Assembly (NCBI GenBank): GCA_030017835.1
Contig: JASEGU010000004.1
Location: 6,445 to 70,444 of the forward strand
Reading direction: 5' to 3'
Length of the DNA stretch: 64,000 bases
DNA from: Actinomycetota bacterium
GTDB taxonomy: Bacteria; Actinomycetota; Aquicultoria; UBA3085; Oleimmundimicrobiaceae
Below are positions 3,780 through 61,650 of this stretch, piece by piece. A program made the position numbers and the translations under genes. Position 1 is the first letter of the stretch; each line of letters opens with the position of its first letter. The notes under the pieces were generated by a model. That model was not told the origin of the DNA and made no database searches. It worked only from the letters and a program-made list of their open reading frames with translations.

Positions 3780-3806
3780 TCTCTCTTTCATAATTTGCAA
3801 ATCAGC

Positions 3807-4310
3807 TTAAGAGAGCCTCTCGGCTATGGACAGGCCGAACCTATTGGCGGCCGCCGGGCCGTTTGCGGTGATTATTCTGCCGTCCACCACCACGTTCTCA
3901 TCGATTAAGATCGCCCCCTTCGACAGGAGGTCCCCCTTCATCGACCCAAAGACCGTAGCCCTCTTCCCTTGAAGCAGTCCGGCATTGGCGAGTATGACCG
4001 GGGCGATGCAGATGGCAGCAGTGATTTTTCCGGCTTTTAGAGACGCCTTGGCAAGATCCATGGCCACCTCGTCCTCGAAGTACTCCTTGGCTCCGGACCC
4101 GCCCACGAAGATGATCGCCTCGTAATCCTCCGCCCGTGCCTCCTTTAGGGCGATGTCGGCAAGGACGCGCGCCCCGCCAATCCCCCTCGACTCACGCCCC
4201 GTTGATGAGGCAACCGTAACCTTGGCTCCAAAAGACTCGAGAACGTGCCTCGGCTCCAGATACTCTTCGTCTCTGAAGTTATTGCTCGCAACAACCATCA
4301 AGACCTTCAT
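3807..4310 (-). CDS. DJ-1/PfpI family protein (intracellular protease/glyoxalase-like)
   Basis: 167 aa with the nucleophile elbow AICIAPVILANAGLL, typical of DJ-1/PfpI. Confidence 0.8.
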   Translation of the reverse strand: MKVLMVVASNNFRDEEYLEPRHVLESFGAKVTVASSTGRESRGIGGARVLADIALKEARAEDYEAIIFVGGSGAKEYFEDEVAMDLAKASLKAGKITAAICIAPVILANAGLLQGKRATVFGSMKGDLLSKGAILIDENVVVDGRIITANGPAAANRFGLSIAERLS

Positions 4311-22362: not shown

Positions 22363-22458
22363 ATCGCCTCAGAATTACTGGGGTATTTCCAGCTAACCAC
22401 CCTCGGGCAACTAGCTGTTTCACGTGAAACATGGATCTCTGTTCGAATATGCGATCCC

Positions 22459-22896
22459 TCAGTCCGGGCGAATTATAACCCTTCTTTCGGGATCAACGCC
22501 ATCGCTTTCCGTCTTAACTCTAGGATCGTCGTGCAGGCTCTCGTGGATTATCTTGCGCTCAAAAGCGCTCATGGGCCTGAGCGAAACGGGCCGCGCTTCG
22601 CGGACTGCCTTTTCGGCCATCCTTTCGGCCAAGCTGGCTAGCGAGGTCTCCAGGCGAGCCCGGTACTCCTCTATGTCCAAGGATATGAAGCGCTTATTCT
22701 CCTCGTCTTTGTTCTCAACGATTGAAAGTATGAGCTGAAGGGCCTGAAGGGTCGAGCCCCGTCTGCCGATTATAATTCCCAGGTCGTCTCCGCTAATGCT
22801 GTACTTTAGGACGCCCTCCGTTTCTTCGCAGTCAACCTCGGCCTCCAGCCCAAAGGCGTCCAGTACTTTTTGAAGAAGATTCATTCCTTTTTCCAA
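22459..22896 (-). CDS. khpB: Jag/KhpB RNA-binding protein (KH + R3H domains)
   Basis: R3H motif and KH fold, positioned downstream of yidC as in the spoIIIJ-jag pair. Confidence 0.8.
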   Translation of the reverse strand: MEKGMNLLQKVLDAFGLEAEVDCEETEGVLKYSISGDDLGIIIGRRGSTLQALQLILSIVENKDEENKRFISLDIEEYRARLETSLASLAERMAEKAVREARPVSLRPMSAFERKIIHESLHDDPRVKTESDGVDPERRVIIRPD

Positions 22897-22985
22897 CGAT
22901 TATTCCTCCGTGGAAGACCGATTGTTTCCGTCTGGTTGGCCGCTAAGGCGGGTTTCTCTCGCGACTCTTACAAGCCCCGCCGGGG

Positions 22986-23651
22986 CTAGTTCATCGCCCT
23001 GGCAATGGCCTGATGCTGAGCGACGCTCAACATATTATATACGACCCAGTAGATGAGGACGCCGGCCGGAAAGCTCAAACAGATGACTATCATAAATGCC
23101 ATCATCGGCAGCATCATCTTGTCTTGTTGCGGGTCCGTCGAAATAGCTTTCTGCATACCGTATTGGCTGATTATTACCAACAAGAAGAGTACGACGAACG
23201 GCCCTATTGCTGTGGCTTTGCCGCTCGAAAGTGCCGTCTTGAAGCTAGTTGTCAAGCTTGGAATGCCGAGGAAGCTCGCCTTTTCAAGTGTTTCGGTCAA
23301 GGGCCCGCCTGAGGAGAGGAGCCTAAAGAGCGCGAACAATATCGGAAGCTGGAGGAGAAGCGGAAGACATCCGCCAAAGGGGTTTACCTTGTTCTCCTTG
23401 TAGAATTTCATCAGCTCTTGGCCCTGCTTCTCCTTGTCGTTTTTGTGCTTCTCTTGGATCTTTTTAACCTCGGGTTGCCACTTCTTCATCCCCTCAGTGG
23501 CCCGGACTTGCTTGACCACCAGGGGGGTCATCAATAATTTTACCAAAACGGTCAGCGCAACAATTGACCAACCCCAATTATTAATGTAGCCATTGAAAAG
23601 CTTTAAAAAGAAGAGCAAAAGATCTATTATTGGCGTTAAAATTTGAGACAC
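22986..23651 (-). CDS. yidC: membrane protein insertase YidC/Oxa1 (short form)
   Basis: 221 aa with 5 TM helices and conserved YidC core motifs. Position rnpA-yidD-yidC. Confidence 0.85.
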   Translation of the reverse strand: MSQILTPIIDLLLFFLKLFNGYINNWGWSIVALTVLVKLLMTPLVVKQVRATEGMKKWQPEVKKIQEKHKNDKEKQGQELMKFYKENKVNPFGGCLPLLLQLPILFALFRLLSSGGPLTETLEKASFLGIPSLTTSFKTALSSGKATAIGPFVVLFLLVIISQYGMQKAISTDPQQDKMMLPMMAFMIVICLSFPAGVLIYWVVYNMLSVAQHQAIARAMN

Positions 23652-23667
23652 TTCTCACCTTCCTTGT

Positions 23668-23877
23668 CTATTTTAAGGGATCATGGCCCCCATCAGAGAA
23701 CGGATGGCACCTTAAGAGCCTCTTCGTTGCCAAGGCCGCTCCTCTTGCCGGGCCGTATTTATCGACCGCCTCGATGGCATACTGGGAACAGGTTGGAATG
23801 AATCGACATCTTGGGGGGAGCACTGAGGAAACCGTTCTTTGATAAGCTCTTATTATAGCAATAATAATTTTTTTCAT
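23668..23877 (-). CDS. yidD: membrane protein insertion efficiency factor YidD
   Basis: 69 aa with the YidD signature …[27 protein letters not shown]…. Confidence 0.9.
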
Positions 23878-24221
23878 TTAATAAGATCTTCCGCTCTTCT
23901 TGTGAGCCTTCTAAGCGCTTTTTCAATCTCGTGATAGCTCTTTCCTTTTATCTTTCTTCTGGCAATAAACACTATATCGGTGGACTTATTAAGCTCCAGC
24001 CCACTCAAACGAAACGCCTCTTTGAGGCGTCGCCTTATCCGGTTCCTCTCAACCGCCCCTCCGAGCTTTCGGCTGACCGAATAGCCGACCCGGCTCTGGC
24101 CGGTGCCTCCGTTTTTTAAAATTAACATCACCAGGAGGTCATTTTTTATGGCCCTGCCTTGAGCATAGACCTTTTCAAAATCTCTCTTGCTTTTCAGGCT
24201 TGCCGTTTTGCTTTCGCCCAT
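23874..24221 (-). CDS. rnpA: ribonuclease P protein component
   Basis: 115 aa basic protein with the RNR motif ([14 protein letters not shown]), downstream of rpmH. Confidence 0.9.
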
Positions 24222-24233
24222 GCCTGGCCCCTG

Positions 24234-24368
24234 TCAGGCTGAGATCTTGGCCCTTCCTTTTCGGCGCCTTGCGGCCAGGATTGCTCGGCCAGCCCTCGTG
24301 CTCATGCGCTTTCTAAAGCCGTGGGTTTTTTTTCTTTTTCTTACATTGGGCTGAAATGTTCTCTTCAA
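24234..24368 (-). CDS. rpmH: 50S ribosomal protein L34 (TTG start)
   Basis: Hand translation of the minus strand gives (M)[43 protein letters not shown]. The ORF track missed it because it starts on TTG and is only 44 aa. Confidence 0.85.
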
Positions 24369-24526
24369 GTATATCTTCCTTCTCTCGTTTAGCTTGCCCG
24401 TTAAAACTGAGTAATTATAGCGTGGGCCATTTGGGGTGTCAAGAAAAATGAGGCATTCTTGACATTAAAAAACCTGTTAGTCGGCGCCCTTCTTCTCTCC
24501 CGCCCTAGTCACCAGCGGCAAAATTT

Positions 24527-24535
24527 TGATATAAT
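24527..24535 (+). promoter_or_regulatory. extended -10 promoter element (TGaTATAAT) directed toward the GHKL-wHTH ORF and dnaA
   Basis: TGATATAAT at 24527-24535, with a weak -35 (TAGTCA) 18 nt upstream. Confidence 0.35.
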
Positions 24536-24634
24536 TTATTGGAAACTTTGGCGCTTTTTGAAGCGGCTTGAAAAGGATGAAAAGAGACTCTCGCCCCGAA
24601 AGGGCTTTTCTTCTCTGTTTTCTAAGCCTTTTCA

Positions 24635-24660
24635 TTTCTTTCCACATCTGTGGAAAGAAA
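24635..24660. promoter_or_regulatory. perfect 12-bp inverted repeat with 2-bp spacer containing two inverted DnaA-box-like 9-mers (TTTCCACA / TGTGGAAA)
   Basis: TTTCTTTCCACA-tc-TGTGGAAAGAAA. It sits upstream of dnaA in the rpmH-dnaA intergenic region. It could be an oriC element or the operator of the adjacent wHTH protein. Confidence 0.5.
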
Positions 24661-24763
24661 TGTGTAAAAGTGCGCCATTAGCCCTGTTGGCATGCTTCAT
24701 GAAAAAATTAATCTTTGGCTGAAGCTTAAGACGTCCTTGGTCCGGTGAGCTCGGCCGAACTCT

Positions 24764-25648
24764 TTGCGGGCCCCATCTTGGGCGGATACTTTTGTGGAGG
24801 AAGCTGTGAACAAGTTTTTGGAGAGGGTCCTGTCCGAAAAAGAAGATGCTAAAAAAGAGAGCCTCGCTCGGGAGGCCGCCCCTTCTTGCGCTGAGGAGAA
24901 GGGGGCCTCTTCCTTCAGGGGGTTTGCGCGAATAGCAATATATGACTCTCTCTCTTCGCCGCCACAGATAATTGAGCTCTCCTGCCAGGACCGCCAAGAG
25001 TTCATCGATTCTCTGGGAGCCAAGATATATCAGCTCTCTCACGAAGGGGGCGGGAACGCACCCTTTGCCGCCATCAAGGAGCTGGTCGAAAACCTCATAC
25101 ACGCCTCCTTTAAGGAGGTCGTCGTCACGATCCTAAACAAGGGGAACACCATAAGGATAGCCGACCAGGGGCCGGGAATCGCAAATAAAGACAAGGCCCT
25201 TGAGCCCGGTTTCTCGACTGCCACCAGCGAGATGAAGCACATCATAAAGGGGGTCGGCTCGGGCCTTCCAATCGTAAAAGAAATAGTGGGCCTATCAGGT
25301 GGGGTCATGAAGATAGAGGACAATCTTGTATCTGGGTCGGTAATAACCATGGAGTTTAAAAAGATCCCCGAGCTGGGCGGGGTAGAATTGCCCGCCAAAA
25401 AGAAGCCTTCTCCCCTTACGATGACGCTTTCCAATCGGCAAAAAAAAGTGTTATTCTTAGTTGCTGAGGTCGGCCCAATCGGTCCCTCAGAGATGGCCTC
25501 TGAGCTAAGCATGAGCCTTAGCACTGCCTATAGAGACTTAAGGTCTCTAGAGGACTTGGGACTACTTAGGGCTGACGACAGGGGCCGAAGGGTCTTGTCC
25601 CAAGAGGGCGTCGACTTTATGGAAAACTTTTTCGACCAAACAGGGTGA
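24764..25648 (+). CDS. GHKL (histidine-kinase-like) ATPase fused to a C-terminal winged-HTH, immediately upstream of dnaA
   Basis: N-box ELVENLIHASF, G1 ADQGPGI, G2 GVGSGLPIVKEIV, and a C-terminal MarR/ArsR-like wHTH (VLFLVAEVGPIGPSEMASELSMSLSTAYRDLRSLEDLGLL). The stop is 4 nt before the dnaA ATG. The start is uncertain; GTG/ATG alternatives lie downstream of 24764. Confidence 0.55.
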   Translation: MRAPSWADTFVEEAVNKFLERVLSEKEDAKKESLAREAAPSCAEEKGASSFRGFARIAIYDSLSSPPQIIELSCQDRQEFIDSLGAKIYQLSHEGGGNAPFAAIKELVENLIHASFKEVVVTILNKGNTIRIADQGPGIANKDKALEPGFSTATSEMKHIIKGVGSGLPIVKEIVGLSGGVMKIEDNLVSGSVITMEFKKIPELGGVELPAKKKPSPLTMTLSNRQKKVLFLVAEVGPIGPSEMASELSMSLSTAYRDLRSLEDLGLLRADDRGRRVLSQEGVDFMENFFDQTG

Positions 25649-25652
25649 TTTC

Positions 25653-27002
25653 TTGCAAGCAGACATCGCGGAGGCCTGGAAAGAGGCCGTAAAACAATTA
25701 AAGGCTGGGATGAGTGCTCCCATATCGAAGGCTTGGTTCGATAACACCTCGGCGGTTGATATGTCAAATGGTGTCGTCTTTATATCGGCTCCCAATAATT
25801 TCATCAAAGAGTGGCTCGAGACAAGACACGTCGACTCAATAAAAGAGACCCTGTCGGCTATCTTAAACGAGGATGTGCTCGTAAGCTTCATTTCTAAAGA
25901 GTTAGAAGGGGTCGCCACGTCGCCCAGGACCAAGATTCAATCAAAACCGCCAGAGACCGAGGCGAGGGGTGGGGCCGGCCTCTTAAATTCAAAATATACC
26001 TTCGAAGCTTTCGTGATCGGAAGCAGCAACCGGTTCGCCCACGCCGCCGCATTGGCCGTGGCGGAGCTTCCTTTTAAGGCTTACAACCCGCTGTTTATCT
26101 ATGGCGGCGTGGGCCTTGGAAAGACTCACCTGCTGCAGGCTGTCGGCAACTATGTCTCCCAGCATAACCGCGAACTTAAAATTAGGTATGTTTCGACGGA
26201 GAAATTTACCAACGACTTCATCAGCTCAATTGGAGATAGGGGCAAAATCTCTGGTTTTCAAAATAAATATCGCAAAGTTGATGTGTTGATGATAGACGAC
26301 ATCCAGTTTATAGCCGGCAAGGAGGCGACCCAAGAGGAGTTCTTTCACACATTTAATAATCTATATGAAGCGAATAAGCAGATGGTTATCACTAGCGACC
26401 GCCCACCAAAGGATATCTCAACCCTAGAAGACCGCCTTCGTTCGAGGTTTGAGTGCGGCCTCATCACCGATGTCCAGCCACCTGATCTGGAGACAAAGAT
26501 AGCCATTTTAAAGAGAAAGCTTAGCGATAACGACGTCGTCTCTTTCGAGGTTTTAGAGTTCATTGCTTCCAGGGTCCACTCGAATATTAGGGAGCTTGAG
26601 GGGGCGCTGACTAGGGTTCTTGCCTTTTCCTCCTTCACAAAAACCCCGATAGATATTAAGCTCGCCGAGGAGGTTTTAAGGAATATATTCTCAAACAAAG
26701 AGAGCCGACCGATATCGATTCAGGCCATACAGAATGAGGTCTGCCGCTTTTTTGGGATTTCAAAAACCGAGCTCGTCGGAAGCCGGCGGAGTCAGCCGAT
26801 TGTTTATCCTAGACAGATTGCTATGTACCTATCGAGAGAATTAACTGATATGTCTCTTCCAAAGATCGGCGAGGAGTTTGGTGGAAGAGATCACACAACG
26901 GTGATGCACGCCAATTTAAAGATAGAAAGGCTAATAAGCGAAAGGCGGGAGATATATAACCAGATTCAGGAGTTAATTAATAAGATAAAACAGAGATCTT
27001 AA
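25653..27002 (+). CDS. dnaA: chromosomal replication initiator DnaA
   Basis: AAA+ Walker A GGVGLGKTHLL, plus domain IV with the basic-loop/HTH C-terminus. Confidence 0.95.
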   Translation: MQADIAEAWKEAVKQLKAGMSAPISKAWFDNTSAVDMSNGVVFISAPNNFIKEWLETRHVDSIKETLSAILNEDVLVSFISKELEGVATSPRTKIQSKPPETEARGGAGLLNSKYTFEAFVIGSSNRFAHAAALAVAELPFKAYNPLFIYGGVGLGKTHLLQAVGNYVSQHNRELKIRYVSTEKFTNDFISSIGDRGKISGFQNKYRKVDVLMIDDIQFIAGKEATQEEFFHTFNNLYEANKQMVITSDRPPKDISTLEDRLRSRFECGLITDVQPPDLETKIAILKRKLSDNDVVSFEVLEFIASRVHSNIRELEGALTRVLAFSSFTKTPIDIKLAEEVLRNIFSNKESRPISIQAIQNEVCRFFGISKTELVGSRRSQPIVYPRQIAMYLSRELTDMSLPKIGEEFGGRDHTTVMHANLKIERLISERREIYNQIQELINKIKQRS

Positions 27003-27215
27003 TAACTCTAAGCCTGTTGATTATTTGTGTATCAATTATTAACAATTTTGGGATTTAAAAATTTCACAACTTTTATTAATAGTTCTAAATAATTTATTAG
27101 ATGTTTGTGAACAATTAAGAGACGGGGCAAGCTCTGTAATTAACAATTCAACAAGCTCTAATATTATTACTATTTTTATTTATTAATATATCAATCAATA
27201 CTAAGAGGTGTTTAA
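27003..27215. promoter_or_regulatory. oriC-type AT-rich dnaA-dnaN intergenic region (DNA-unwinding element plus degenerate DnaA boxes)
   Basis: About 25% GC over 213 bp, against about 58% for the surrounding window. Degenerate boxes TGTGTATCA (27026-34) and TGTGAACAA (27106-14). There are runs of TTATT/ATTAA. Confidence 0.55.
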
Positions 27216-28319
27216 ATGTTTATCACTTGTGAGCAGAAAGAGTTATTGGAAGAGATTCAAGTAGTTCAAAAGGCCGCATCCATCCGGAGCACCCTCCCCA
27301 TCTTAAGCGGCATACTTTTTAGCGCTTCGGCCGGCAGGCTACATCTTACCACCACCAACTTGGAATTATCTATACATTCCAGCCTGCCGGCCGAAGTCAA
27401 AGAAGAGGGATCTTTAGTCGTTCAGGCTCGCCTAATTGGAGAGATCATTAAAAACCTTTCTGATTTAAAAATAGAAATGTTTTTAGATTCCTCCACAAAC
27501 CAACTAAAATTAACCAATTCCAAGTCGGTCTTCAATATAAAAATCCTTTCGCCAGAGGACTTTCCAAAGTTTCCCACGGCCGAGTTGGACAATCAGTTCA
27601 CCATCAAGTCGGAAGACCTCTCTAACGCTATAAGACAGGCCATAAAAGCCGCCTCTATTGATGAGACTCGGCCCATCTTGACCGGCGTCCTTATTGTAGT
27701 AAATAAAAATAGGTTAAAGATGGTTGCCACCGACAGCTATCGTTTAGCCATAAAAGAGATCCCAATAATCAACAAAGAAGACGTCAAGATAAAGGCCATC
27801 ATTCCCTCAAGAACGCTCGGGGAGCTTCTTAAGATTGTCTCTGATGGACGGAGCGAAGTAGTGGTGGGAGAGATGGGAAATCAACTCGCCTTTAAGATTA
27901 AAAATACCACCCTGATAACTCGGCTAATAGAGGGGCAGTATCCAAACTATCAACAGATCCTCCCAGAAAAGTATGAGATGAATTTTGTGGTGGATCGAGA
28001 AAATCTTCTTGGCGCCGTAAAGAGGATATCCTTATTTACCCAAAGCAACTCTTTAATAAAAATGGCGGCAAGAGATGGCTCTCTTGAGCTCAGCGCCTCT
28101 GCTGCTGAACTTGGTGAGGCCAAAGAGGCAGTAGATTATAGGGGGACGGGAGACGGATTGACAGTGGCCTTTAATAGTCAATATCTGATCGACGGCCTTA
28201 GTAGTATTCAGGGAGAGGAGGTATCCTTTGATATGATAGACAACATGAAACCGACCTCAATCACAGGAGACAAGAAGGATGACTTCCTCCACCTCTTAAT
28301 GCCGGTTAGAACCGGATGA
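27216..28319 (+). CDS. dnaN: DNA polymerase III beta sliding clamp
   Basis: 367 aa, three-domain clamp, canonical position after dnaA. Confidence 0.9.
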   Translation: MFITCEQKELLEEIQVVQKAASIRSTLPILSGILFSASAGRLHLTTTNLELSIHSSLPAEVKEEGSLVVQARLIGEIIKNLSDLKIEMFLDSSTNQLKLTNSKSVFNIKILSPEDFPKFPTAELDNQFTIKSEDLSNAIRQAIKAASIDETRPILTGVLIVVNKNRLKMVATDSYRLAIKEIPIINKEDVKIKAIIPSRTLGELLKIVSDGRSEVVVGEMGNQLAFKIKNTTLITRLIEGQYPNYQQILPEKYEMNFVVDRENLLGAVKRISLFTQSNSLIKMAARDGSLELSASAAELGEAKEAVDYRGTGDGLTVAFNSQYLIDGLSSIQGEEVSFDMIDNMKPTSITGDKKDDFLHLLMPVRTG

Positions 28320-28355
28320 TAAAATATATTATTATATTAAAAAATAGGAAAAAGA

Positions 28356-29468
28356 TTGCATCTTTTTAGAGCAGAGCTCCTCAGCTTTAGAGGTCACAAA
28401 GAGGCTTCATTCGAGCCCATCCCTGGCATAAATGTGATAATCGGTGATAATGGCTGCGGCAAAAGCAACCCGCTAGAGGGAATCTTCGTCCTTATGAGAG
28501 GGAGGTCCTTTGGGACGAGCCAAGACGATGCTTTGATTCAACTCGGAGAGAGGGCGTCGGTAATTAGGGGGAGGTTTAAGGGAGAGAAGAGAGACTCTAA
28601 AATCGAAATGGGCATAAATGCTGACGCCGGAAAAGAGATTAGACTGAACGGCTTAAGGCTGGAGAAATTAAAAGATCTTAAGAGTTCTTTTGGAATAGTC
28701 ACCCTCTCTCCTGAGGATCTTAAGCTCGTCAAAGGTGGCCCCGAAGAGAAGAGGGCGCTCATGGATGAGGCTGGGGGGCCCTTGGCCCAAAATATGACCA
28801 TGCGAGGATGAGCCCTTTTAAGGTTTTAAAGCAACGAAACAACCTCTTAAAACAGATCAAATTTGGGAGAGCAGGCCCGCTCAAGCCCTGAGATATGGAA
28901 CGAGAGACCGATCATAACCGGAAAGAGGTTGATGGATGAGAGAAGAGAGACGGTTCAGCCTTTGAGCGAAGTCTGTCAAGATGTCTTCAATGAGATTTAC
29001 GGCCAGAGGCGCAGCCTGAGCCTAATGTGTTCGAACGAAATCTTTAAAAAAGACTCTCCGTCGAGGAGCCTCTCAAAGACCTCTTGGAAAAAGGGGGGGG
29101 CCGATGAGATTGAAAGGGGAACAAGCCTCATCGGCCCCCATAGAGACGACCCAACGATCCTTCTTGGGGGAAAAGAGGGGCCCAGGCCATATGTCTCCCA
29201 GGGCGAACAGAGGGCCATCAGCTTGGCCCTGAGGCTGGCCCACTATGAGCTCTTGTGTAGAGATGAACACGGGATGAACCTGTTTCTAATGGACGACGCC
29301 ATGTCGGAGATGGACGAGAAGAGAAGAGACAACCTCTTAAATTTCATCTCCGGGCTCAAACAGACCACAATCACCAGCACAAATCTCTACTACTTCAAGG
29401 ACGAGCATCTTAAAATGACGAACCTGATTGAAATGGGAGAAGGCGAGAGGAAGAGCAAGGCTTGTTGA
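28356..29468 (+). pseudogene. recF: recF disrupted by two compensating frameshifts (N-terminus and C-terminus in frame 0, middle ~100 nt in another frame)
   Basis: N-terminal Walker A GDNGCGKSN in frame 0. The middle segment …LGPKYDHARMSPFKVLKQRNNLLKQ… is in another frame. The C-terminal signature LFLMDDAMSEMD is back in frame 0. Frame 0 has three in-frame stops over 28809-28850. Shift sites are a G6 run at 28773-28778 and about 28855-28870. Confidence 0.7.
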
Positions 29469-29908
29469 GGGACATCAAGGATGTTTTACGAGACCTAATA
29501 TCCGACCTCAACATGGGCAAGCTGATGGAGGAGGCCAGGATCGTAAGGGGCTGGAGAGATATAGTCGGCGAGCACGTCGCCGAGAATAGCTCCCCAATCT
29601 CGCTTGTGCGCGGCACCCTCTTGATAGGAGCCTACAATTCAGCCTGGTCGAATCAGCTCAGCATGATGAGGACAGGCCTCGTGGAGGAGATAAACAGCCA
29701 CCTTGGCAGAGAGGTCGTAAAAGAGATAAGGTTCAAGCTGATCGAAAAGGCGAAGGAGGAGAGCGATGAGGCCGCCCCCGAAGAACGCACGAGTCTTTTT
29801 GGCGAGGGAGAGAAAAAGAAGATTCTTGGCGATCTCTTGTTAAATGTCGAGGATGCTGAGGTGAGAGAGAGCCTAAAAAGGGCCATTTTCCTAGATGATC
29901 AAAAATGA
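29462..29908 (+). CDS. DUF721 (DciA-like) protein
   Basis: Position between recF and gyrB, as Rv0004/YaaB. …RIVRGWRDIVGEHVAENSSPISLVRGTLLIGAYNSAWSNQL… matches the DUF721 pattern. Confidence 0.65.
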   Translation: MLRDIKDVLRDLISDLNMGKLMEEARIVRGWRDIVGEHVAENSSPISLVRGTLLIGAYNSAWSNQLSMMRTGLVEEINSHLGREVVKEIRFKLIEKAKEESDEAAPEERTSLFGEGEKKKILGDLLLNVEDAEVRESLKRAIFLDDQK

Positions 29909-29912
29909 TTAA

Positions 29913-31850
<1,938 letters not shown>

Positions 31851-31861
31851 GAGAATAATAG

Positions 31862-34327
31862 ATGTCATCACGAGCGCAGCTTTTTGGAAACAAAACAGAA
31901 CCGGTCTACATCGAAGAGGAGATGAAGCGCTCATACATCGATTACGCCATGAGCGTGATCGCCGGGCGTGCCCTGCCCGATGTGAGAGACGGCCTTAAGC
32001 CGGTCCACCGCCGCATCCTCTACGGCATGTACGATCTTGGCATGGTTCCGGGCAAGCCCTATATGAAGTGCGCCCGCATCGTAGGAGAGGTTTTGGGAAA
32101 GTATCACCCCCACGGCGACAGCGCCGTCTATGACGCTCTGGTTAGGATGGCCCAAGACTTCTCCTTGAGATATCAGCTCATCGATGGCCACGGAAACTTC
32201 GGCTCGGTCGACGGCGACAGCCCGGCCGCCATGCGCTATACCGAGGCTCGCCTCTCCAAGCCGGCCATGGAAATGCTGAAAGACATCAACAAAGAGACGG
32301 TCGATTTCGCCCCCAACTTCGATGAGACCCTGAGCGAACCGACGGTTCTGCCCTCGAGGCTTCCCAACCTCCTTATCAACGGCTCCTCGGGGATAGCCGT
32401 CGGCATGGCGACCAACATTCCGCCTCACAACATGGCCGAGGTCATCGATGCCGTCGTCATGCTGATCGATAAACCAGAGGCCGGCATAGAGGATCTGATG
32501 ACTCAGATTAAGGGACCAGACTTTCCTACCGGGGGACTCATCGTCGGCACGGCCGGCACAAAAGAGGCCTATCGGACCGGGCGCGGCAACGTGATTATGA
32601 AATCCAAAACCCACATCGAAGAGACGAAATCGGGAAAGCACAGGATCATCGTGACCGAGATCCCGTTTCAGGTCAACAAGGCGCGTCTGACCGAGAAGAT
32701 TGCCGAGCTCGCCAGGGAGAAAAAGATAACCGAGATAAGCGACCTGCGCGACGAGTCCGACAGGAGCGGCATGCGTCTGGTCATCGAGCTGAAGAGGGAG
32801 GCCGTTCCCAAGGTCGCCTTAAACAAGCTATTCAAATATACCCAACTCAAAACGACCTTCAATATCATAACGCTGGCCCTGGTCGACACGGCTCCCAAGG
32901 TCCTCAACTTGCTCGAGGCCCTGAAGTACTACCTCGACCACCAGAGAGAGATCATCGTTAGAAGGACGAGGTTTGATCTGGCCAAGGCTGAAGCCAGAGC
33001 CCACATTTTGGAAGGGCTTTTGGTTGCCCTGAACAATTTGGACGAAATGATAAAGCTTATCAAGTCGTCAAAGACGGTCGATATCGCCCGCTCAAGCATC
33101 ATGGAGCGCTTCTCTTTGAGCGAGACTCAGGCCCAGGCCATTTTGGATATGCGCCTACAGAAGCTGACCGGCCTTGAGCGCGAGAAGATAGAGACCGAAC
33201 ACAAAGAACTCCTTGAGGCGATCGCCGAGCTCAAAGCCATCTTGGCCGACGAGAAGAGAGTCTACGCCATCATCAAGAGGGAAATCCTTGAGATCAAGAC
33301 GAACTATCTCGACGAGAGGCGCACCAAGATAGTTCCGGCCGAGGATGACTTGGAGGAGGAGGACCTCATTGCCGAAGAGCAGATGATCGTCTCGATAACC
33401 AATTCGGGCTACGTCAAGCGCTTGCCCGTCGAGACCTACCGCCAGCAGCAACGGGGCGGCCGCGGGGTCATCGGCATGAATCTCAAGGACGGGGACGTGG
33501 TCGAGCACATGTTCGTCTCCTCAACCCACGATTACGTCCTCTTCTTCTCCAACGAGGGCAAGGTCTACCGGGTCAAGGTTCACGAGCTCCCCTTGGGCAG
33601 CCGCACATCCAAGGGGCAGGCCATCGTCAACATCCTTCCCTTTGGGCCGGGCGAAAAGATAGCGGCCGTCATCGCGGCCAAGGGTTTTGAGCAGAGCAAA
33701 TATATCATAATGGCGACCAAGCTCGGTCTGGTCAAAAAGACCGAGCTCAAAGAGTACGACACCGCAAGGCGTGGCGGGATAATTGGTTTGAACCTGAAAG
33801 AAAATGACGAGTTAATAGGGGTCAAGCTGGTAGATAAGGATGACAGAATAATCCTCGTCTCCGAGCTGGGTCAATCGATTTGTTTCGACGAGAGCGACGT
33901 TCGTCCGATGGGCCGGGCCGCCTCGGGGGTCAAGGGGATCACCCTAAATCTGGCCGACGTGGTCCTTGCGATGGACGTCGTAAGAAACCTCGGCGAGCTC
34001 TTCGTCGTCACCAATAACGGTTATGGCAAGCGGACACCGATCACCAAATACCCGGCCCAGGCTCGGGGCGGAAAGGGCGTTCGCACGATCAAAAAGTTTG
34101 AGAGCGGGGAAAGGCTGGCCGGGGCCAAGGTGGTAAGCGATGAGCACGAGATCATGCTCATCTCGGCCGAAGGCTTGGTGATCAGGACGGCGGCCAAAGG
34201 GATAAGCCGGATGGGCCGGAGCACCCGCGGGGTTAGGGTCATCAACCTTAAAGAGAACGATGTGGTGAGCACGGTCGCCAAAGTGGCCAGCGCCAGGGCC
34301 TCAGAGGAAAACGGGGATGGAGTCTGA
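31862..34327 (+). CDS. gyrA: DNA gyrase subunit A
   Basis: Active-site Tyr region, QRDR-like [14 protein letters not shown], and C-terminal beta-pinwheel repeats. Confidence 0.95.
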
Positions 34328-36332: not shown

Positions 36333-36409
<77 letters not shown>

Positions 36410-36510
36410 TTTGAGAGAAGAGGCTATAACGCAAAAGGCGCGCAGAGCATATTTGGCGCCTTTGTTAATGGAGTCTCTTTGGGCCTTCTCTTAAGGCCGA
36501 TTGGCGAGTT

Positions 36511-38588
<2,078 letters not shown>

Positions 38589-55488: not shown

Positions 55489-55576
55489 GGAGGGGTGGCT
55501 GAGCGGCTTAAAGCGGCGGTCTTGAAAACCGTTGTCGCTAACGCGACCGGGGGTTCAAATCCCTCCCCCTCCGCCA
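55489..55576 (+). tRNA. tRNA-Ser (anticodon TGA)
   Basis: GGAGGGGTGGCTGAGCGG…, loop CTTGAAA, long variable arm, CCA. Confidence 0.8.
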
Positions 55577-55697
55577 CTAATCTTTCTGGGACAAGCCTAA
55601 GCCGCATTTCCCAAGTCCCACGGTGCTCCGGTTTGACAAAAACCAAAAATGCTAATAAATTATTGGCATATGCTATTTATTATCGAAAGGGCTCAAA

Positions 55698-56105
55698 TTG
55701 GTAAGACCGGTCAAGTGCAGAAGGGTCTCCTTCGCTCCGGATCACCGTTATTTCAAGCCGGCCGGCGTCCCCTTAAGCGAGCTTGCCGAAACTGTACTCA
55801 GCCTAGATGAGCTCGAGGCGGTCCGCTTGGCCGACCTGGAAGGGCTTTATCAAGAAGAGGCTGCAAAGAGGATGAACGTCTCGAGACAGACCTTTGGCAA
55901 CATCCTCTCTTCGGCCAGGAGAAAGATCGCCGAATCTTTGGTTGAGGGCAAGGCATTAAAGATCGAAGGGGGCCAGGTTCACCTGGCTGCAAAGAGAATC
56001 TTTACCTGTCATGACTGCGGCCACAGATGGGGCCCATGCTTTGGAGAGCGGCGGCCGCTCGGATGCGAGGTCTGTCAAGGCAAAAATATATACCGCTCAA
56101 AATGA
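55698..56105 (+). CDS. DUF134-family putative DNA-binding protein with C-terminal Cys4 zinc ribbon
   Basis: MVRPVKCRRVSFAPDHRYFKPAGVP…LDELEAVRLADLEGLYQEEAAKRMNVSRQTF is the DUF134/sigma-70 region-4-like HTH. The C-terminus carries CHDCGH…CEVC. Confidence 0.65.
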   Translation: MVRPVKCRRVSFAPDHRYFKPAGVPLSELAETVLSLDELEAVRLADLEGLYQEEAAKRMNVSRQTFGNILSSARRKIAESLVEGKALKIEGGQVHLAAKRIFTCHDCGHRWGPCFGERRPLGCEVCQGKNIYRSK

Positions 56106-56165
56106 CCGGCCTAAGCCTCTTGTCAAAACCGGTAAGGTCGGACAAAAACCTGAAAGGAGAGAGAG

Positions 56166-56540
56166 ATGAGAATATGTATCCCAACCAAAAACGATGAGGG
56201 CCTAGCCTCGATAGTCTATGGTCACTTCGGGAGCGCCCCCTACTTTTTGGTCTACGATACGGAGACTTCCAAGATGGAGGCGATAAACAACTCCGACCAA
56301 GGCCACGAGCACGGCAGGTGCAAGCCTTTGGCCTCTTTTGTTAACCATCCGATAGATGCCGTGGTAACCGGAGGAATCGGTCTTAGGGCTATGGAACGTT
56401 TAAGCCAAGGCGGCGTCAAGGTCTATCGCATGGTCAGTGAGCCCACCGTTTTAGAGGTGATTGAGAAGTATCGCCAGGGCTTATTGGAAGAGATAGCCCT
56501 AGATGATGCCTGCTCCCACGATCACGACTGCAATCATTAG
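56166..56540 (+). CDS. NifX/NafY/NifB-C-terminal-like dinitrogenase cofactor-binding domain protein
   Basis: MRICIPTKNDEGLASIVYGHFGSAPYFLVYDTET…AVVTGGIGLRAMERLSQGGVKVY matches the PF02579 pattern. Confidence 0.7.
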   Translation: MRICIPTKNDEGLASIVYGHFGSAPYFLVYDTETSKMEAINNSDQGHEHGRCKPLASFVNHPIDAVVTGGIGLRAMERLSQGGVKVYRMVSEPTVLEVIEKYRQGLLEEIALDDACSHDHDCNH

Positions 56541-56627
56541 TTACGCCAACAGGGGCAAAACTTAAAACGCTATTTTTACTCTAAGACTGGAAAATGTGAC
56601 CCATCCGAGGTAAACTGTATATCGCTC

Positions 56628-56721
56628 GGAGAGGTCGCATAGTCGGTCTAGTGCGGCCGCCTGCTAAGCGGCTTGGGGGTTATAAGCTCCCTCGAGGGTT
56701 CGAATCCCTCCCTCTCCGCCA
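56628..56721 (+). tRNA. tRNA-Ser (anticodon GCT)
   Basis: Acceptor GGAGAGG/CCTCTCC, loop CTGCTAA, long variable arm, CCA. Confidence 0.75.
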
Positions 56722-56766
56722 TCTTGCTTTTATCGGCTTAAGCCTTGCCGATCAGTATTTATAGAT

Positions 56767-56843
56767 GCGCCTGTGGCTCAATCGGATAGAGCATTGGACT
56801 ACGAATCCAAAGGTTGCAGGTTCGAATCCTGCCAGGCGCGCCA
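56767..56843 (+). tRNA. tRNA-Arg (anticodon ACG)
   Basis: GCGCCTGTGGCTCAATCGGATAGAGC, loop CTACGAA, T-loop TTCGAAT, CCA. Confidence 0.85.
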
Positions 56844-56904
56844 TTACATCATCGGATGAGACTTAAGGGGTCTCATCTTTTTGGTTTTTGGGGAGGAAAG
56901 TTCG

Positions 56905-57351
56905 GTGACTGACGAGGATTTCATGCGGGTTGCGATAGGGCAAGCGCAAATGGCGGCCGCCTCTGGCGACGTTCCGGCCGGAGCGGTGATTGTCCTGGGT
57001 GATGAAATCATCGCGAAAGCCCATAACGAGCGGGAGAAGAGGAACGATCCGACGGCCCATGCGGAGGTTTTAGCCATAAAGGCGGCCGCCGAAAAACTTG
57101 GCCGCTGGCGCCTTACCGGCTGCAAGATCTATGTGACCAAAGAGCCCTGTCCGATGTGCGCCGGAGCCATCTACCAGGCCAGGCTCGACGAGCTCATCTT
57201 CGGAGTCCAGGACGCCAAGGCCGGGGCGGCCGGCTCGCTCTTTAACATCACGGGTGATCCTCGCCTAAACCACCGGGTCAAAGTGAAGAGCGGCGTCTTA
57301 AAAGAGGAATGCAGGGCCCTCATACAAGATTTCTTCAAAGCAAGAAGATAA
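56905..57351 (+). CDS. tadA: tRNA-specific adenosine(34) deaminase
   Basis: CDA fold with HAEVLAI and PCPMCAGA zinc ligands. The GTG at 56905 lies 8 nt after GGAGG. Confidence 0.85.
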   Translation: MTDEDFMRVAIGQAQMAAASGDVPAGAVIVLGDEIIAKAHNEREKRNDPTAHAEVLAIKAAAEKLGRWRLTGCKIYVTKEPCPMCAGAIYQARLDELIFGVQDAKAGAAGSLFNITGDPRLNHRVKVKSGVLKEECRALIQDFFKARR

Positions 57352-57401
57352 ATCATCTTGCTTGAGGACGGGCAAAGGTTGTAACCTTATAGGGCGAAAA
57401 C

Positions 57402-57494
57402 GGAGGGGTGGCTGAGTGGCCGAAGGCGGCGCTCTCGAAAAGCGTTAAGCTCCTAATCCGAGCTTCGAGGGTTCAAATCCCTCCCCCTCCGCCA
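57402..57494 (+). tRNA. tRNA-Ser (anticodon CGA)
   Basis: GGAGGGGTGGCTGAGTGGCCGAAGGC, loop CTCGAAA, long variable arm, CCA. Confidence 0.8.
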
Positions 57495-57598
57495 GCTTTG
57501 TTTCTTCCGCTCCGTGATTCTAAGAGCTTCTCCAGCTTTGCAAACTATAAAATGGACAGTAATTCTTCCGACGCCAATGCATACAGGAAAATATAATT

Positions 57599-57979
57599 AT
57601 GAAGGACCAAATACTCTTATATCGTGAAATGTGTGATGCAGAAAAAGTTCAAACCCTACAAAGGGGAATGAATTATCGATTAAATACAAAGTGCTCGGTG
57701 ATCTTAATGTCTCAACGCTCTAACGCACCATATAATGACAAAATACATGATGATGGAATTACCATTGAATATGAAGGCCATGACATCCCGAGAACAAAAT
57801 ACGAAATGAATCCGAAGGAGTATGATCAGCCATATGTAACGATAACCGGGCGACTTACACAAAACGGGCTTTTTGCCAAAGCCGCAGAAGATTATGAGAA
57901 CAAGAGACGCGAAGCAGAAATTGTCAAGGTTTGTGTAAAAAATCCTTTTGGGCGCATGGTCAGAAAAAGGATTTTTTAG
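57599..57979 (+). CDS. hypothetical protein in AT-rich islet (possibly the N-terminal domain of a disrupted HNH nuclease)
   Basis: 126 aa, low-GC codon usage unlike the flanks. The 3' end overlaps the next frame at an A5/T6 run. Confidence 0.35.
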   Translation: MKDQILLYREMCDAEKVQTLQRGMNYRLNTKCSVILMSQRSNAPYNDKIHDDGITIEYEGHDIPRTKYEMNPKEYDQPYVTITGRLTQNGLFAKAAEDYENKRREAEIVKVCVKNPFGRMVRKRIF

Positions 57980-58304
57980 GCTTGTAGACTTTTGCTACAC
58001 AAGCGATGGGAAGAGAAGAGTTTTTCGTTTTGTGCTCGAAGAGACAATAGTTAATTTTGAAAATAAGAACTCCAAAGAGGATAGATTAAAGCCCAGAACA
58101 AGGGTTATCCCAACGCAAATAAAGAAGATCGTTTAGGAGAGGGATAATGGTAGGTGTGTTATATGTGGGGCAAGGGACGAGCTCCACTTTGATCACGACC
58201 TTACTTACTCAAGGGGCGGAACCAGCATTTCGCCAAAGAACGTTAGAATTCTTTGCGCAAGACATAACTTATCTAAATCAGCAAAGATTGAATGGTCTTC
58301 ATAA
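57948..58304 (+). pseudogene. HNH endonuclease remnant (frameshift at 57965-57975 plus in-frame TAG at 58134)
   Basis: After the TAG, the same frame encodes RCVICGARDELHFDHDLTYSRGGTSISPKNVRILCARHNLSK, which is an HNH motif (C-x2-C … HFDH … N … C-x2-H-N). Confidence 0.6.
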
Positions 58305-58454
58305 AATCTATTTGTATCCAACGCGGACATAAATTTTTTGCCTATCCCTTAAGCTTTCTCTCAGCTTTCCTTGCTATCCTAAGCCACACAACAACCTTGA
58401 TGGTAAAATGTTTATGCAAGCCTTTTGCCATCCAAAAACTTGGAGGTGTTAACG

Positions 58455-58741
58455 ATGGCACGGGACAAATGTAAGACCAACATCGTAGTCGATATCGCTT
58501 CAGCGGTCGCCTTCCTTCTCTCCTTGGTCTCGGGGATGGTCCTCTGGCTGGTCCTTCCTTCGGGCTCGGGCTTTCAGGGGGGCGCGGGAGCGGCGGGGCC
58601 GCCTATCTTCTTGGACTCGGCAGACACGACTGGCTGGCCATCCACATAGTTTTTAGCGTGGCCTTGGCGCTTTTGGTCGGATATCACCTGATCCTTCACT
58701 GGTGTTGGATCAAGAGGATTCCGGCTATGATGGAGAAGTAA
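58455..58741 (+). pseudogene. DUF4405-family small membrane protein with frameshift at a G7 run (about 58577-58583)
   Basis: MARDKCKTNIVVDIASAVAFLLSLVSGMVLWLVLPSG… in frame 1, and …RHDWLAIHIVFSVALALLVGYHLILHWCWIKRIPAMMEK in frame 2. Confidence 0.5.
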
Positions 58742-58969: not shown

Positions 58970-59035
58970 TGGTAATTGGGTCAGGCTTAGCCTAAGCGGG
59001 CAGGCTTCTGTCGGAATCTTAAGGGGGGTTGATTT

Positions 59036-59739
59036 ATGGATAAAGCCGGTAAATTAAAGCTCTTTTCGATTCTAAATTTTTGTATCTATTTTGCCATGGT
59101 TTATGTAAATTACCTGGCCGTAGCTCTGCCTCTGGGCGGCCGGGCGACCCTAGAGCTCTCCGATAAATACCCGAGCCTCTTTACGCCGGCCTTACCTTCT
59201 CCATCTGGGGTCTTATGTATACCCCTCTTCTGATCTTCGTCATTTACGGCCTCAAGGAGGCCCTTGGGGGCGGTCAGGAAACTGACTTCTTGGCCAAAAT
59301 CGGACCCCTCTTCATCGTATCGTCGCTTGCCAACGTCTCCTGGATCTTCGCTTGGCACTTTGAGAAGGTCGCCCTTTCGCTTCTCATCATGCTCGTCATC
59401 CTCGCAAGCCTGATCGTAATCTACCTGCGCCTTGGCACGGGAGCTTCTCAACCGTCAAAAGGAGAGGCCCTCTTCGTTCGACCCGCATTTAGTATCTATC
59501 TGGGTTGGATATCGGTTGCCACCATCGCCAACGTATCGGTCCTCCTCTTGAGCTTGGGCTGGAATGGATTTGGCATAAGCGCTGAATCCTGGACGGTCCT
59601 CATGATCGCTGCCGCCACCATCCTTGGATTGCTAGCCGTTAAGCTAAAGGGGGATATCTTCTATGCCCTGGCGATATATGCTGGGCGCTCCTTGGGACCA
59701 TCATCAAGAGGCTTTCGGTGGGGCCCTCTCCCATCATGA
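59036..59739 (+). pseudogene. polytopic membrane protein split by a frameshift near 59160-59175
   Basis: Frame A reads …GGRATLELSDKYPSLFTPA and frame B reads …LYAGLTFSIWGLMYTPLLIFVIYGL… Both halves are hydrophobic and read as one protein of about 235 aa. Confidence 0.4.
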
Positions 59740-59817
59740 GCATAGCCTTTACCGCCGGGGCGGGACTGGCAATCATTTTGCTCTTTGCTACCTATAAGAT
59801 GTTTTTAAAAGGGGATA

Positions 59818-60399
59818 ATGGCTCATAAATTCGATCCCAAAAAGATGCATAAGCTCGACTCGGCCGAGAGGAGGAGGCTTCCTCCAAAGGAGACCCTCTT
59901 AAAGCTCGGCCTGCGCGAGGGAGACGCTGTGGCCGATATCGGAGCCGGTATCGGCTTCTTCTCATTTGCGGCAGCCGAGATAGTCGGCAAAGCGGGCCAC
60001 GTTGCGGCCTTCGATATCTCGCCCGAGATGATAGATGAACTTAAGGTTCGAATCGAGAAGGCAAAAACCCAAAACGTCTCAGCCATCCTTTCAAAAGAGT
60101 ACTCCTTCCCGGCCGAAAAGGGGACCTTCGACTTCGCGCTCATGGCCAACGTCCTTCACGAGGCCCAAGATAGAGCCCTCTTTTTGAAAGAGGCGGCGGC
60201 CCTTTTGAAGGCGGGCGGAAAACTTGCCATTATAGAGTGGAAGAAGAACACCTTAACTGCTCTGGTCGGGCCGCCGCTGGGCGAACGCTTGACCGAGGCC
60301 GAAGTTTTGGCATTGCTTATCGAATTAAACTTTGCAGACATCAGCGCCATCGACCTCTCAAGCAACCATTTTGCGCTAACGGCCGTGAAATCTCATTGA
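59818..60399 (+). CDS. class I SAM-dependent methyltransferase
   Basis: Motif I DIGAGIGFFSFAAA, post-I acidic residue (AAFDIS), motif II/III. Confidence 0.75.
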   Translation: MAHKFDPKKMHKLDSAERRRLPPKETLLKLGLREGDAVADIGAGIGFFSFAAAEIVGKAGHVAAFDISPEMIDELKVRIEKAKTQNVSAILSKEYSFPAEKGTFDFALMANVLHEAQDRALFLKEAAALLKAGGKLAIIEWKKNTLTALVGPPLGERLTEAEVLALLIELNFADISAIDLSSNHFALTAVKSH

Positions 60400-60453
60400 T
60401 CATTTAATTCCCTCTCCAGCAAAAGATTAAATATTCTCATGACAAAGATTTGT

Positions 60454-60480
60454 AATAATTATTGATTAATAGCGATTATT
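60454..60480. promoter_or_regulatory. AT-rich imperfect palindrome; candidate Fur/PerR-type operator upstream of the fur-family gene
   Basis: TAATAATTATTGATTAATAGCGATTATT lies 30-60 nt upstream of the 60512 start. Confidence 0.25.
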
Positions 60481-60511
60481 TGCTAAGGTTATTTGAACCC
60501 AAGGAGGCGAC

Positions 60512-60922
60512 TTGATAGCCGAAGAGAAGATAGAAAAGCTGAAAGAAGAGGGTCGCGTCCCAACCATCCAACGCCTGGCTGTGCTCGAGTTCATGGAGGG
60601 CAACTTAGGTCATCCCACCGTGGAAGAGGTATATAGGGGTCTTAAGGACAGATATCCCTCCCTCTCACAGGCCACCGTCTATTCTACCCTGGAACTCCTT
60701 CGAGATCTCGGTCTCTTGCGTGAGCTGACCATTCTGCGCTCCAAGGTCTGCTACGATTCGATAATCGAAGCTCACCATCATTTTTCTTGCAAGGCTTGCG
60801 GGCGCGTCTTTGACGTCGCTGTCGATTGCGCTATTCCCAAAAAGGATCTGATTCAAGGCAACAAGGTCGATGAATTCCAGGCTTATATCTACGGCACTTG
60901 CTCAAATTGTTTAGAAGGGTGA
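60512..60922 (+). CDS. fur: Fur-family metalloregulator (Fur/PerR/Zur/Nur-type)
   Basis: wHTH N-terminus, HHHF metal site and two CxxC pairs (CKAC…CSNC). Confidence 0.8.
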   Translation: MIAEEKIEKLKEEGRVPTIQRLAVLEFMEGNLGHPTVEEVYRGLKDRYPSLSQATVYSTLELLRDLGLLRELTILRSKVCYDSIIEAHHHFSCKACGRVFDVAVDCAIPKKDLIQGNKVDEFQAYIYGTCSNCLEG

Positions 60923-60978
60923 TTTTGAGAAGAAGATAAAGTTTTACAAAAATCGGTCAATCAACAACGGAGGAGTCA

Positions 60979-61629
60979 ATGAAAGAGATCTGCATCGAAC
61001 AAGCTAAGAGAAAAAGCATTCAAAGCCATGCGTGGCTACTTCTTCCCCTGATAGTCTTTGGCGGGCTTAAGTGGCCATATTTGGGCTTTGGGGTCCTTGC
61101 CATGATGGGCTTTTTCCTCGTCATGGCGGCGATCAAAGGGAGGCACTGGTGCGGCTGGTTCTGTCCGCGCGGCTCATTTCTCGAGCGCATACTGGAGAGG
61201 GTGAGCTTAAATGGGAGAGTGCCCGCGCTGCTCAAAACGGCCCCCTTTCGCTGGAGCGTATTTGCTCTCATGATGAGCTTTATGTCGTTTCGTCTGATTG
61301 GGACGGGCGGAAACCCGGTTAAGATCGGCTCGGTCTTCATAACCATGTGTATCATCACCAGCATATTGGCGATAGGGCTAGGCCTCATCTTCAAGCCGAG
61401 GTCCTGGTGCAGCTTCTGTCCGATGGGAACCCTTCAAGGGGTCTTGGGCGCAAGCAAGAATCTGGTCTCGATAGGTGAGGATTGTATCGACTGCGGCGCG
61501 TGCGGGCGGGTTTGTCCGATAGGTACGGTCGCCATGGATTTCAAGGATAGCGGCCGCGTCGCCAGCATCGATTGCTTGCGCTGCAGAGAATGTTTGGCCA
61601 AGTGCCCGGTCGGCGCCCTTGATTGTTAA
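60979..61629 (+). CDS. NapH/MauN-like membrane-bound 4Fe-4S ferredoxin
   Basis: TM helices carry the CGWFCPRG and CSFCPMG motifs. The C-terminus has two ferredoxin motifs, CIDCGACGRVCP and CLRCRECLAKCP. Confidence 0.7.
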   Translation: MKEICIEQAKRKSIQSHAWLLLPLIVFGGLKWPYLGFGVLAMMGFFLVMAAIKGRHWCGWFCPRGSFLERILERVSLNGRVPALLKTAPFRWSVFALMMSFMSFRLIGTGGNPVKIGSVFITMCIITSILAIGLGLIFKPRSWCSFCPMGTLQGVLGASKNLVSIGEDCIDCGACGRVCPIGTVAMDFKDSGRVASIDCLRCRECLAKCPVGALDC

Positions 61630-61650
61630 TCTAAAGAACGGGGAGCACGC

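Follow-up and report, generated by a model that had tools for sequence, protein, structure and literature searches.

Why does the guanine-plus-cytosine (GC) content drop for about one kilobase immediately behind a serine transfer RNA (tRNA) gene of an uncultured Actinomycetota bacterium, and what does the DNA in this trough encode? The stretch in question occupies 57495-58454 of the window, by which we mean the whole 64-kb piece of a metagenome-assembled Actinomycetota genome that was analysed here, and it fills the spacer between tRNA-Ser(cga) and a DUF4405 gene. In all likelihood, this stretch is a single-gene foreign insertion, and the gene it carries, a member of a family that joins an SRA-like reader domain to an HNH nuclease, is now dead.

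The AT-rich insertion behind tRNA-Ser(cga)

Directly 3' of tRNA-Ser(cga) (57402-57494, + strand; called by ARAGORN, Rfam 52.8 bits), which forms the left edge of the insert, 960 bp reaching to the DUF4405 start codon have a GC content of 39.5%, compared with 53.8% for the window. In 200-bp windows, the GC fraction runs at 0.37-0.43 over 57500-58450 and at 0.50-0.63 on both sides, with the recovery falling at ~58450. Since only 0.9% of all 956-bp windows (mean 0.538, standard deviation 0.038) are as poor in GC as 57495-58450 (0.395), and the sole other comparably AT-rich region, at 26-28 kb, corresponds to dnaA/dnaN in the replication-origin neighbourhood and is no island, the low GC is both real and unusual for this window. 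An earlier note on this DNA had described a sharp GC fall over ~950 bp after the tRNA, which the computed, non-uniform profile bears out. Within the stretch lies a pseudogene (57599-58304, + strand) whose GC fraction at third codon positions is 0.389, as opposed to 0.681 ± 0.051 in 35 open reading frames (ORFs) of the host (minimum 0.503), so that the deviation goes beyond amino-acid make-up. A scan of the insert for promoters and terminators gave nothing above chance on the + strand.

A relative offers the same site without the gene. A protein search with TadA, whose gene is the native left neighbour of the tRNA (tadA, 56881-57351, + strand; P0391 in the source genome; Pfam MafB19-deam and dCMP_cyt_deam_1), led to a 3.2-kb contig, L167, which encodes a 78% identical TadA and is the closest relative locus found. 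Its order is tRNA-Arg(acg), tadA, tRNA-Ser(cga), a 316-bp spacer, an intact DUF4405 gene (95 amino acids, 64% identical) and a small ORF (83% identical to that of the window). The two tRNA-Ser(cga) genes show one mismatch in 93 nt. Similarity between the window and L167 ends at the CCA end of this tRNA and restarts at the ATG of DUF4405, the distance between the two being 960 bp in the window and 316 bp in L167, in which tblastn did not find the nuclease family. We take the tRNA to be native and the gene, very probably, to be an insertion in the lineage of the window; ancestral presence followed by loss in L167 is less likely because of the composition of the pseudogene. Third-codon composition and the L167 site thus both argue for the horizontal acquisition that the earlier note had proposed, together with just such a comparison of the region downstream of tRNA-Ser among relatives. 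Farther afield, ~16 of 80 distant genomes have tRNA-Ser(cga) no more than ~300 bp behind tadA, and the nuclease gene was seen at none of these 80 other tadA loci; a scan of genome contigs with TadA returned just distant genomes (≤61% identity) with no common downstream synteny.

On the far side of the insert, the native right neighbour DUF4405 (58455-58741, + strand) is itself frameshifted in the window, near a G6 run at about 58577-58582, and its repaired protein covers positions 1-66 of 66 of PF14358 (E 2.4e-13). Besides, L167 (1640-2360) is without ~2 kb of the window at 58970-61650, between the small ORF and a nifH-like gene; the genes missing there are a membrane-protein gene, most of an S-adenosylmethionine (SAM) methyltransferase, a FUR regulator and a 216-amino-acid Cys-rich membrane ORF. 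Variability thus extends over the entire flank.

The 3' flank of a tRNA gene is a classic site of genomic islands, and one could read the insert as the last remnant of a larger, integrase-borne island at the 3' end of tRNA-Ser that was later deleted down to one gene. This would suit an insert of atypical composition directly after a tRNA gene, as well as the eight further family loci with the same geometry described below. Yet, in agreement with the earlier note, no integrase exists among the genes flanking the insert, and the 3' end of the tRNA does not recur as a direct repeat on the far side of the insert. The native neighbours known from L167 abut the insert on both sides, and at other loci a family member as a rule sits alone among housekeeping genes. 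In addition, phage, plasmid and IMG/VR collections did not yield the family: tblastn of the former two and a scan of the latter gave HNH-domain-only matches or nothing, and no vehicle was identified. We thus regard an island remnant as improbable and retain the single-gene insertion.

Other marks of mobility were sought around the insert and across the family. Target-site duplications and terminal inverted repeats as family-wide features were rejected, standing at chance level (7.7% and 6.2% of 65 loci at p ≤ 0.05), and the flanks of family loci have no common sequence. With neither a conserved target nor terminal repeats nor a duplication, the gene does not present itself as a homing or transposon cassette. 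An integron attC site was rejected as well, as 58304-58454, read by eye and not by a formal scan, holds no matching R'/R'' pair. The insert does contain a weak ~20-bp direct repeat, unrelated to the tRNA. Its left copy (TAAGAGCTTCTCCAGCTTTGC..., 57521-57555, + strand) resembles L167 1016-1048 (2.4% of shuffles reach the score), its right copy (CCTTAAGCTTTCTCTCAGCTT, 58347-58368, + strand) resembles L167 1012-1033 (3.5% of shuffles), and for left versus right copy 4.8% of shuffles reach the score; the repeat is possibly due to chance, and we claim no target duplication.

The position next to a tRNA, on the other hand, recurs. To view the context of the family, 83 loci were sampled (three via product look-up and 80 from a metagenome scan), and in eight of them the family member is preceded, at 36-91 bp, by a tRNA gene of the same orientation, compared with ~0.2 loci expected by chance at the tRNA density of the same loci. 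None of the eight has a tRNA within 600 bp downstream. The tRNAs are Pro-tgg (two loci), Ser-gct (three loci that represent one context), Arg-tcg, Arg-tct and a Ser with an anticodon called act; this last one, at L151 1221-1310, is a tRNA-Ser that ARAGORN assigns the unusual anticodon ACT, 36 bp upstream of the family member. As the proteins at these loci are 63-83% identical to each other, the adjacency does not stem from one recent clone. The window, with its tRNA 104 bp upstream, adds a ninth case, and all nine family members reside on the 3' side of a tRNA gene and are co-oriented with it. These nine cover six or more distinct tRNA contexts. It is conceivable, though doubtful, that the family represents an overlooked, very widely exchanged lineage of compact SRA-like/HNH genes for type IV (modification-dependent) restriction, which move as integrase-less single-gene cassettes and settle, co-oriented, 3' of tRNA genes. 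Possible reasons for such a preference are read-through from the tRNA promoter, which would express a promoter-less gene, and the use of the conserved tRNA sequence as a one-sided homology anchor for recombination.

The SRA-like/HNH family and its predicted activity

Searching with the repaired protein retrieved upwards of 7,900 homologues, the 120 best of which are 63-73% identical to it over 94-100% of the query and nearly all measure 220-234 amino acids; intact family proteins comprise ~231 amino acids and go by no public name other than "HNH endonuclease", and our literature search found no paper on this ~231-amino-acid family. Named homologues span at least eight phyla or candidate groups, and the family occurs chiefly in uncultured lineages, among them Patescibacteria, Zixibacteria and Chloroflexota. 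In addition, 592 cluster representatives match the part made up of residues 1-112 alone.

The C-terminal portion is an HNH domain of the beta-beta-alpha-metal type. Its core, consisting of C-x2-C, H-F-D-H, N and C-A-R-H-N, is fully kept at 58155-58268 (+ strand) and reads CVIC...HFDH...CARHN, as the earlier note had it, with the His, the Asn and the Cys/His zinc ligands all recognizable. The note had further made its reading depend on recovery of this motif by profile search, which the relatives show and the window copy shows below the Pfam threshold. All 41 intact relatives on which profile and invariance tests were run match PF01844 as well as PF14279 (best E 1.1e-5), and the closest of them, P0001, passes the PF01844 threshold with 23.2 bits, whereas the repaired window protein stays under the cut-off of 21.4 (16.1 bits, E 0.013). 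The latter also matches the HNH part of NCBIfam IscB (E 3.5e-5). Overall, Pfam, NCBIfam and PADLOC returned weak HNH matches for the repaired protein, with nothing at threshold over its N-terminal ~155 residues and, for PADLOC, no match to a type IV model.

The N-terminal portion was assigned by its fold. An AlphaFold2 model of P0001 (41 sequences; mean predicted local distance difference test (pLDDT) 76.8, predicted template modelling score (pTM) 0.71) matched the SRA domain of SUVH5 in Foldseek (E 1e-3, probability 1.0), with SRA entries among the top 15 at probabilities of 0.92-1.0. Structure comparison of the model retrieved chiefly modified-cytosine readers of restriction enzymes and, ranking after them, HNH nucleases (EcoKMcrA 6.9, Cap5 6.6, GVE2 HNH 6.3). 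Combined with a faint Pfam SAD_SRA match in 6 of the 41 members (best E 0.0032), this supports a protein in which a linker connects an SRA-like reader to an HNH nuclease, and it agrees with the N-terminal reader and C-terminal HNH domain conjectured in the earlier note. In the window, the reader is encoded in two pieces, residues 1-112 in the frame of the first ORF (57599-57935, + strand) and residues 113 to ~155, which the model folds into three long beta-strands, in a shifted frame (57937-58064, + strand). The first piece includes Y45, D47 and Y58, which are invariant among the 41 relatives and in whose region the model confidence is 53-75. In TagI, Tyr55 and Tyr67 wall the pocket, accompanied by a carboxylate, and two pocket tyrosines plus a carboxylate have been described for both TagI and UHRF1 (PMC6212794). 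Mapped by a spacing like that of TagI, and not by residue-level superposition, Y45, D47 and Y58 make up a candidate base pocket.

A reader of the SRA type, a linker and an HNH domain is also the architecture of the modification-dependent (type IV) enzymes TagI, ScoA3IV and TbiR51I (PMC6212794, PMC4333417, PMC6765204). The family is a sequence-divergent new member of this known SRA-HNH class, present in the window only as a relic, and from its architecture we infer that its intact members cut DNA in a modification-dependent manner. By analogy with TagI, ScoA3IV and ScoMcrA, they would most likely be solitary type IV restriction enzymes. In this scheme, invading DNA would have a modified cytosine, of the 5-methylcytosine (5mC) or 5-hydroxymethylcytosine (5hmC) type, flipped out by the SRA-like domain and lodged in a pocket with Y45 and Y58 as walls and D47 as the carboxylate, while the HNH domain, perhaps as part of a dimer, would cut nearby. 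Such an enzyme could do without a cognate methyltransferase.

Family members typically occur as lone ORFs amid housekeeping genes, e.g. between cysS and pyrG, ribosomal-protein genes and greA, or tRNA-Ser and miaB; L081, L084 and L086 exemplify such neighbours. By motif scan, methyltransferase motifs are present in 10 of the 83 family loci, and a cognate methyltransferase is thus no regular companion. The 64-kb window contains no C5 or N4/N6 methyltransferase motif, for which reason self-toxicity via a host C5 methyltransferase was rejected. Seven of the 83 loci, all among these ten (L102, L131, L132, L133, L146, L161 and L164), abut a complete type II system in three gene orders, composed of an SPPY-type N6_N4 methyltransferase (PF01555, E-values from 1e-42 to 1e-46) together with a nuclease of the MvaI/BcnI family (PF15515, E-values from 1e-63 to 1e-66), which suggests that the SRA-like/HNH gene is functionally paired with a restriction-modification system of the N4-methylcytosine (m4C) type. 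At a further locus, L149, a C5-cytosine methyltransferase gene (3040-3948; PF00145, E 4e-71) is oriented convergently to the family member at a distance of ~150 bp.

Alternatively, the family might not serve restriction at all but comprise selfish or homing HNH genes, repair or regulatory nucleases, or toxins, with the SRA-like domain binding a target other than modified cytosine. The very high conservation across phyla and the lone, scattered insertions would fit a selfish gene, the cleavage specificity is a prediction, and one locus, as just described, adjoins a C5 methyltransferase. Against this stand the lack of any intron, intein or conserved target-gene context, the lack of conserved flanks, terminal repeats and target duplications in 65 loci, fold matches that are mostly modified-cytosine readers of restriction enzymes, and the subset of members residing within restriction-modification operons. 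We hold a role outside restriction to be quite unlikely and continue to favour solitary type IV enzymes.

Decay of the window copy

The copy in the window is a dead pseudogene with modest further decay. A first ORF of 126 amino acids extends over 57599-57979; a second frame then runs via KILLGAWSEKGFF... up to an in-frame TAG at 58134-58136 (+ strand), downstream of which it translates as ERDNGRCVICGARDELHFDHDLTYSRGGTSISPKNVRILCARHNLSKSAKIEWSS followed by a stop. Alignment with uninterrupted relatives locates the break: the sequence is TATGAAAAAAT in many relatives and TGTGTAAAAAAT in the window. Where relatives commonly have G(T/C)(T/C) TAT GAA AAA AT. (V-Y-E-K-I), the window has GTT TGT G[T]AA AAA ATC, which identifies the frameshift as an extra T at 57936 (+ strand; GAA to G-T-AA). 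The TAG, at the start of the HNH domain, arose from TGG and takes the place of W179, the Trp of '...KKxVWERD...' that is invariant in the 41 relatives. At the C-terminus, the family stop codon, which follows '...KI(E/Q/V)' in 11 of 12 aligned intact relatives, has turned into TGG (58293-58304, + strand), so that the window copy reads KIEWSS, with three extra codons before a TAA at 58302-58304. In total, 4 of 68 family-invariant positions are altered (Y32C, Y112C, W179stop and P202T), compared with 0.5 changes on average, and no more than 2, in intact members by a leave-one-out count.

The 126-amino-acid ORF, the in-frame TAG and the inactivation of the nuclease thus stand as the earlier note had reported them. 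Two of its statements do not. It had placed the frameshift at an A5/T6 run (57963-57978), which lies ~30 nt past the extra T and is merely where the first ORF meets a stop. It had also taken the 126-amino-acid ORF for a separate domain followed by a linker, whereas the frameshift, at residue 113, interrupts the reader domain itself, the final three beta-strands of which (residues 107-154) are coded downstream. As for mechanism, the extra T breaks the reader and the change from TGG to TAG removes the HNH domain, with the stop having drifted besides; decay might have set in because the benefit of the gene was lost or because its activity conflicted with cytosine methylation in the host.

A programmed frameshift or recoding of the TAG was ruled out, as the ORFs of relatives are uninterrupted and have Trp at the TAG position. 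Of note, a perfect 14-nt inverted repeat (57936-57949 and 57965-57978, 15-nt loop) starts at the inserted T. This hairpin is peculiar to the decayed copy, since the equivalent stems are just 4-9 nt long in 73 relatives. Nor is the window the only place with a damaged copy: 5-6 of the 83 family copies are disrupted by single nonsense codons or frameshifts. L097 has a TAG at Q39, L147 a TAA at a conserved Glu and L148 a TGA at the invariant R139, while L154 and L156 have early frameshifts; the TGA of L152 falls on a Gly position and may instead reflect a host that translates TGA as Gly.

That the gene is intact in the organism, its frameshift and stop codon being metagenome-assembly errors, strikes us as very unlikely: although the contig comes from a metagenome-assembled genome and recF (28356-29468), DUF4405 and a membrane-protein gene (59036-59739) are likewise split, with two of the breaks at G6 homopolymers, the extra T at 57936 changes no homopolymer length (the A6 run after it fits the family's usual GAAAAAAT), the TAG and the lost stop are substitutions, there are the further missense changes Y32C, Y112C and P202T at invariant residues, and ORFs of 600-900 amino acids elsewhere in the window are unbroken. 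The split genes deserve a record of their own. recF appears as two ORFs matching SMC_N positions 6-134 and 136-201 and needs two frame changes, one of them at a G6 run, be it through assembly error or through true disruption of a housekeeping gene. The membrane-protein gene has no Pfam match, and its frame changes near 59190 and possibly again near 59690.

Several observations weigh against our interpretation of the dead gene as a foreign, modification-dependent nuclease. Of 56 loci, 49 have a family copy with a higher AT content than its flanks, and the copies in L130, L150 and L162, which share one context, are 70-83% identical and appear to have been vertically inherited for long, are still AT-richer than their hosts; low GC must therefore in part be a family trait. 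With regard to the reader, the SAD_SRA matches remain below threshold, searches of PDB sequences, run from one sequence and again from a profile, turned up neither a family member nor a solved relative of the domain, and the model is of medium confidence, weakest at residues 1-70. The C5 methyltransferase at L149 would be awkward for a nuclease broadly directed at 5mC. Finally, given the splits in recF, DUF4405 and the membrane-protein gene, some indels of this contig may be assembly errors.

Surroundings, significance and known systems

Elsewhere in the window, 22400-31900 constitutes the replication-origin neighbourhood (jag, yidC, ..., dnaA, dnaN, recF, gyrB). The window's GyrB shows 100% identity to P0271, encoded on a 76.9-kb NCBI contig. 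A tRNA-Ile(gat) and tRNA-Ala(tgc) pair at 36333-36586, such as 16S-23S spacers usually contain, has no ribosomal RNA (rRNA) gene with it, and Rfam detected no rRNA in the whole window. Upstream of the insert, 55489-57494 has the order tRNA-Ser(tga), tRNA-Ser(gct), tRNA-Arg(acg), tadA, tRNA-Ser(cga), which recurs, complete or in part, in distant lineages (L011, L034, L003 and L168; Deltaproteobacteria, Thermodesulfovibrionales, Desulfosporosinus and further Actinomycetota). The tRNA-Arg(acg) encoded just upstream of tadA here is a substrate that TadA edits.

For this genome, the insert is a small matter, namely a dead and recently acquired gene, presumably for defence, at a tRNA-Ser(cga) flank that is a variable spot. 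The family it belongs to, however, counts thousands of members of near-identical length across distant phyla, many of them uncultured, such as Patescibacteria. Should these proteins indeed be directed at 5mC or 5hmC, they would provide a compact scaffold of ~231 amino acids that is new to the enzymes used as epigenetic tools, and type IV restriction would be under-counted in uncultured lineages. The recurrence at tRNA flanks and the pairing with m4C systems of the MvaI/BcnI type offer testable clues to the spread of small defence genes and to their cooperation.

Compared with known systems, the family comes closest to TagI, ScoA3IV/Sco5333 and TbiR51I/Tbis1, with which it shares an N-terminal SRA fold, a linker and, at the C-terminus, an HNH domain with Cys/His zinc ligands. 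Its two putative pocket tyrosines, singled out by invariance, are 12-13 residues apart and accompanied by a carboxylate, as in TagI (PMC6212794). As with other SRA-HNH enzymes, an adjacent methyltransferase is usually missing, and a solitary gene context is known for PUA/SRA-HNH enzymes (PMC6765204). In contrast, HMMER detected no sequence relationship to TagI, ScoA3IV or TbiR51I with either single sequences or profiles, the family proteins are shorter than TagI (~231 amino acids versus 285 residues in chain 6ghs_A), and they occur chiefly in uncultured lineages rather than in actinomycete isolates. With ScoMcrA (SBD-SRA-HNH) and EcoKMcrA, the family has in common the type IV logic of a reader plus an HNH nuclease, but it lacks the sulfur-binding domain (SBD) of the former, and the reader of the latter adopts a different fold. 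MspJI, LpnPI and AspBHI as well as PvuRts1I and AbaSI use PD-(D/E)XK-type nucleases, and the PvuRts1I family has the opposite domain order; from all of these the family differs by its HNH nuclease. A reader of the PUA superfamily joined to HNH and encoded by solitary genes is also the hallmark of the EVE-HNH enzymes (VcaM4I and TspA15I group; PMC6765204, PMC7897488). As to its location, the insert resembles tRNA-linked genomic islands in that foreign DNA of atypical composition follows immediately 3' of a tRNA gene, and differs from them in comprising one gene (~0.8-0.96 kb) with neither an integrase nor tRNA-derived direct repeats.

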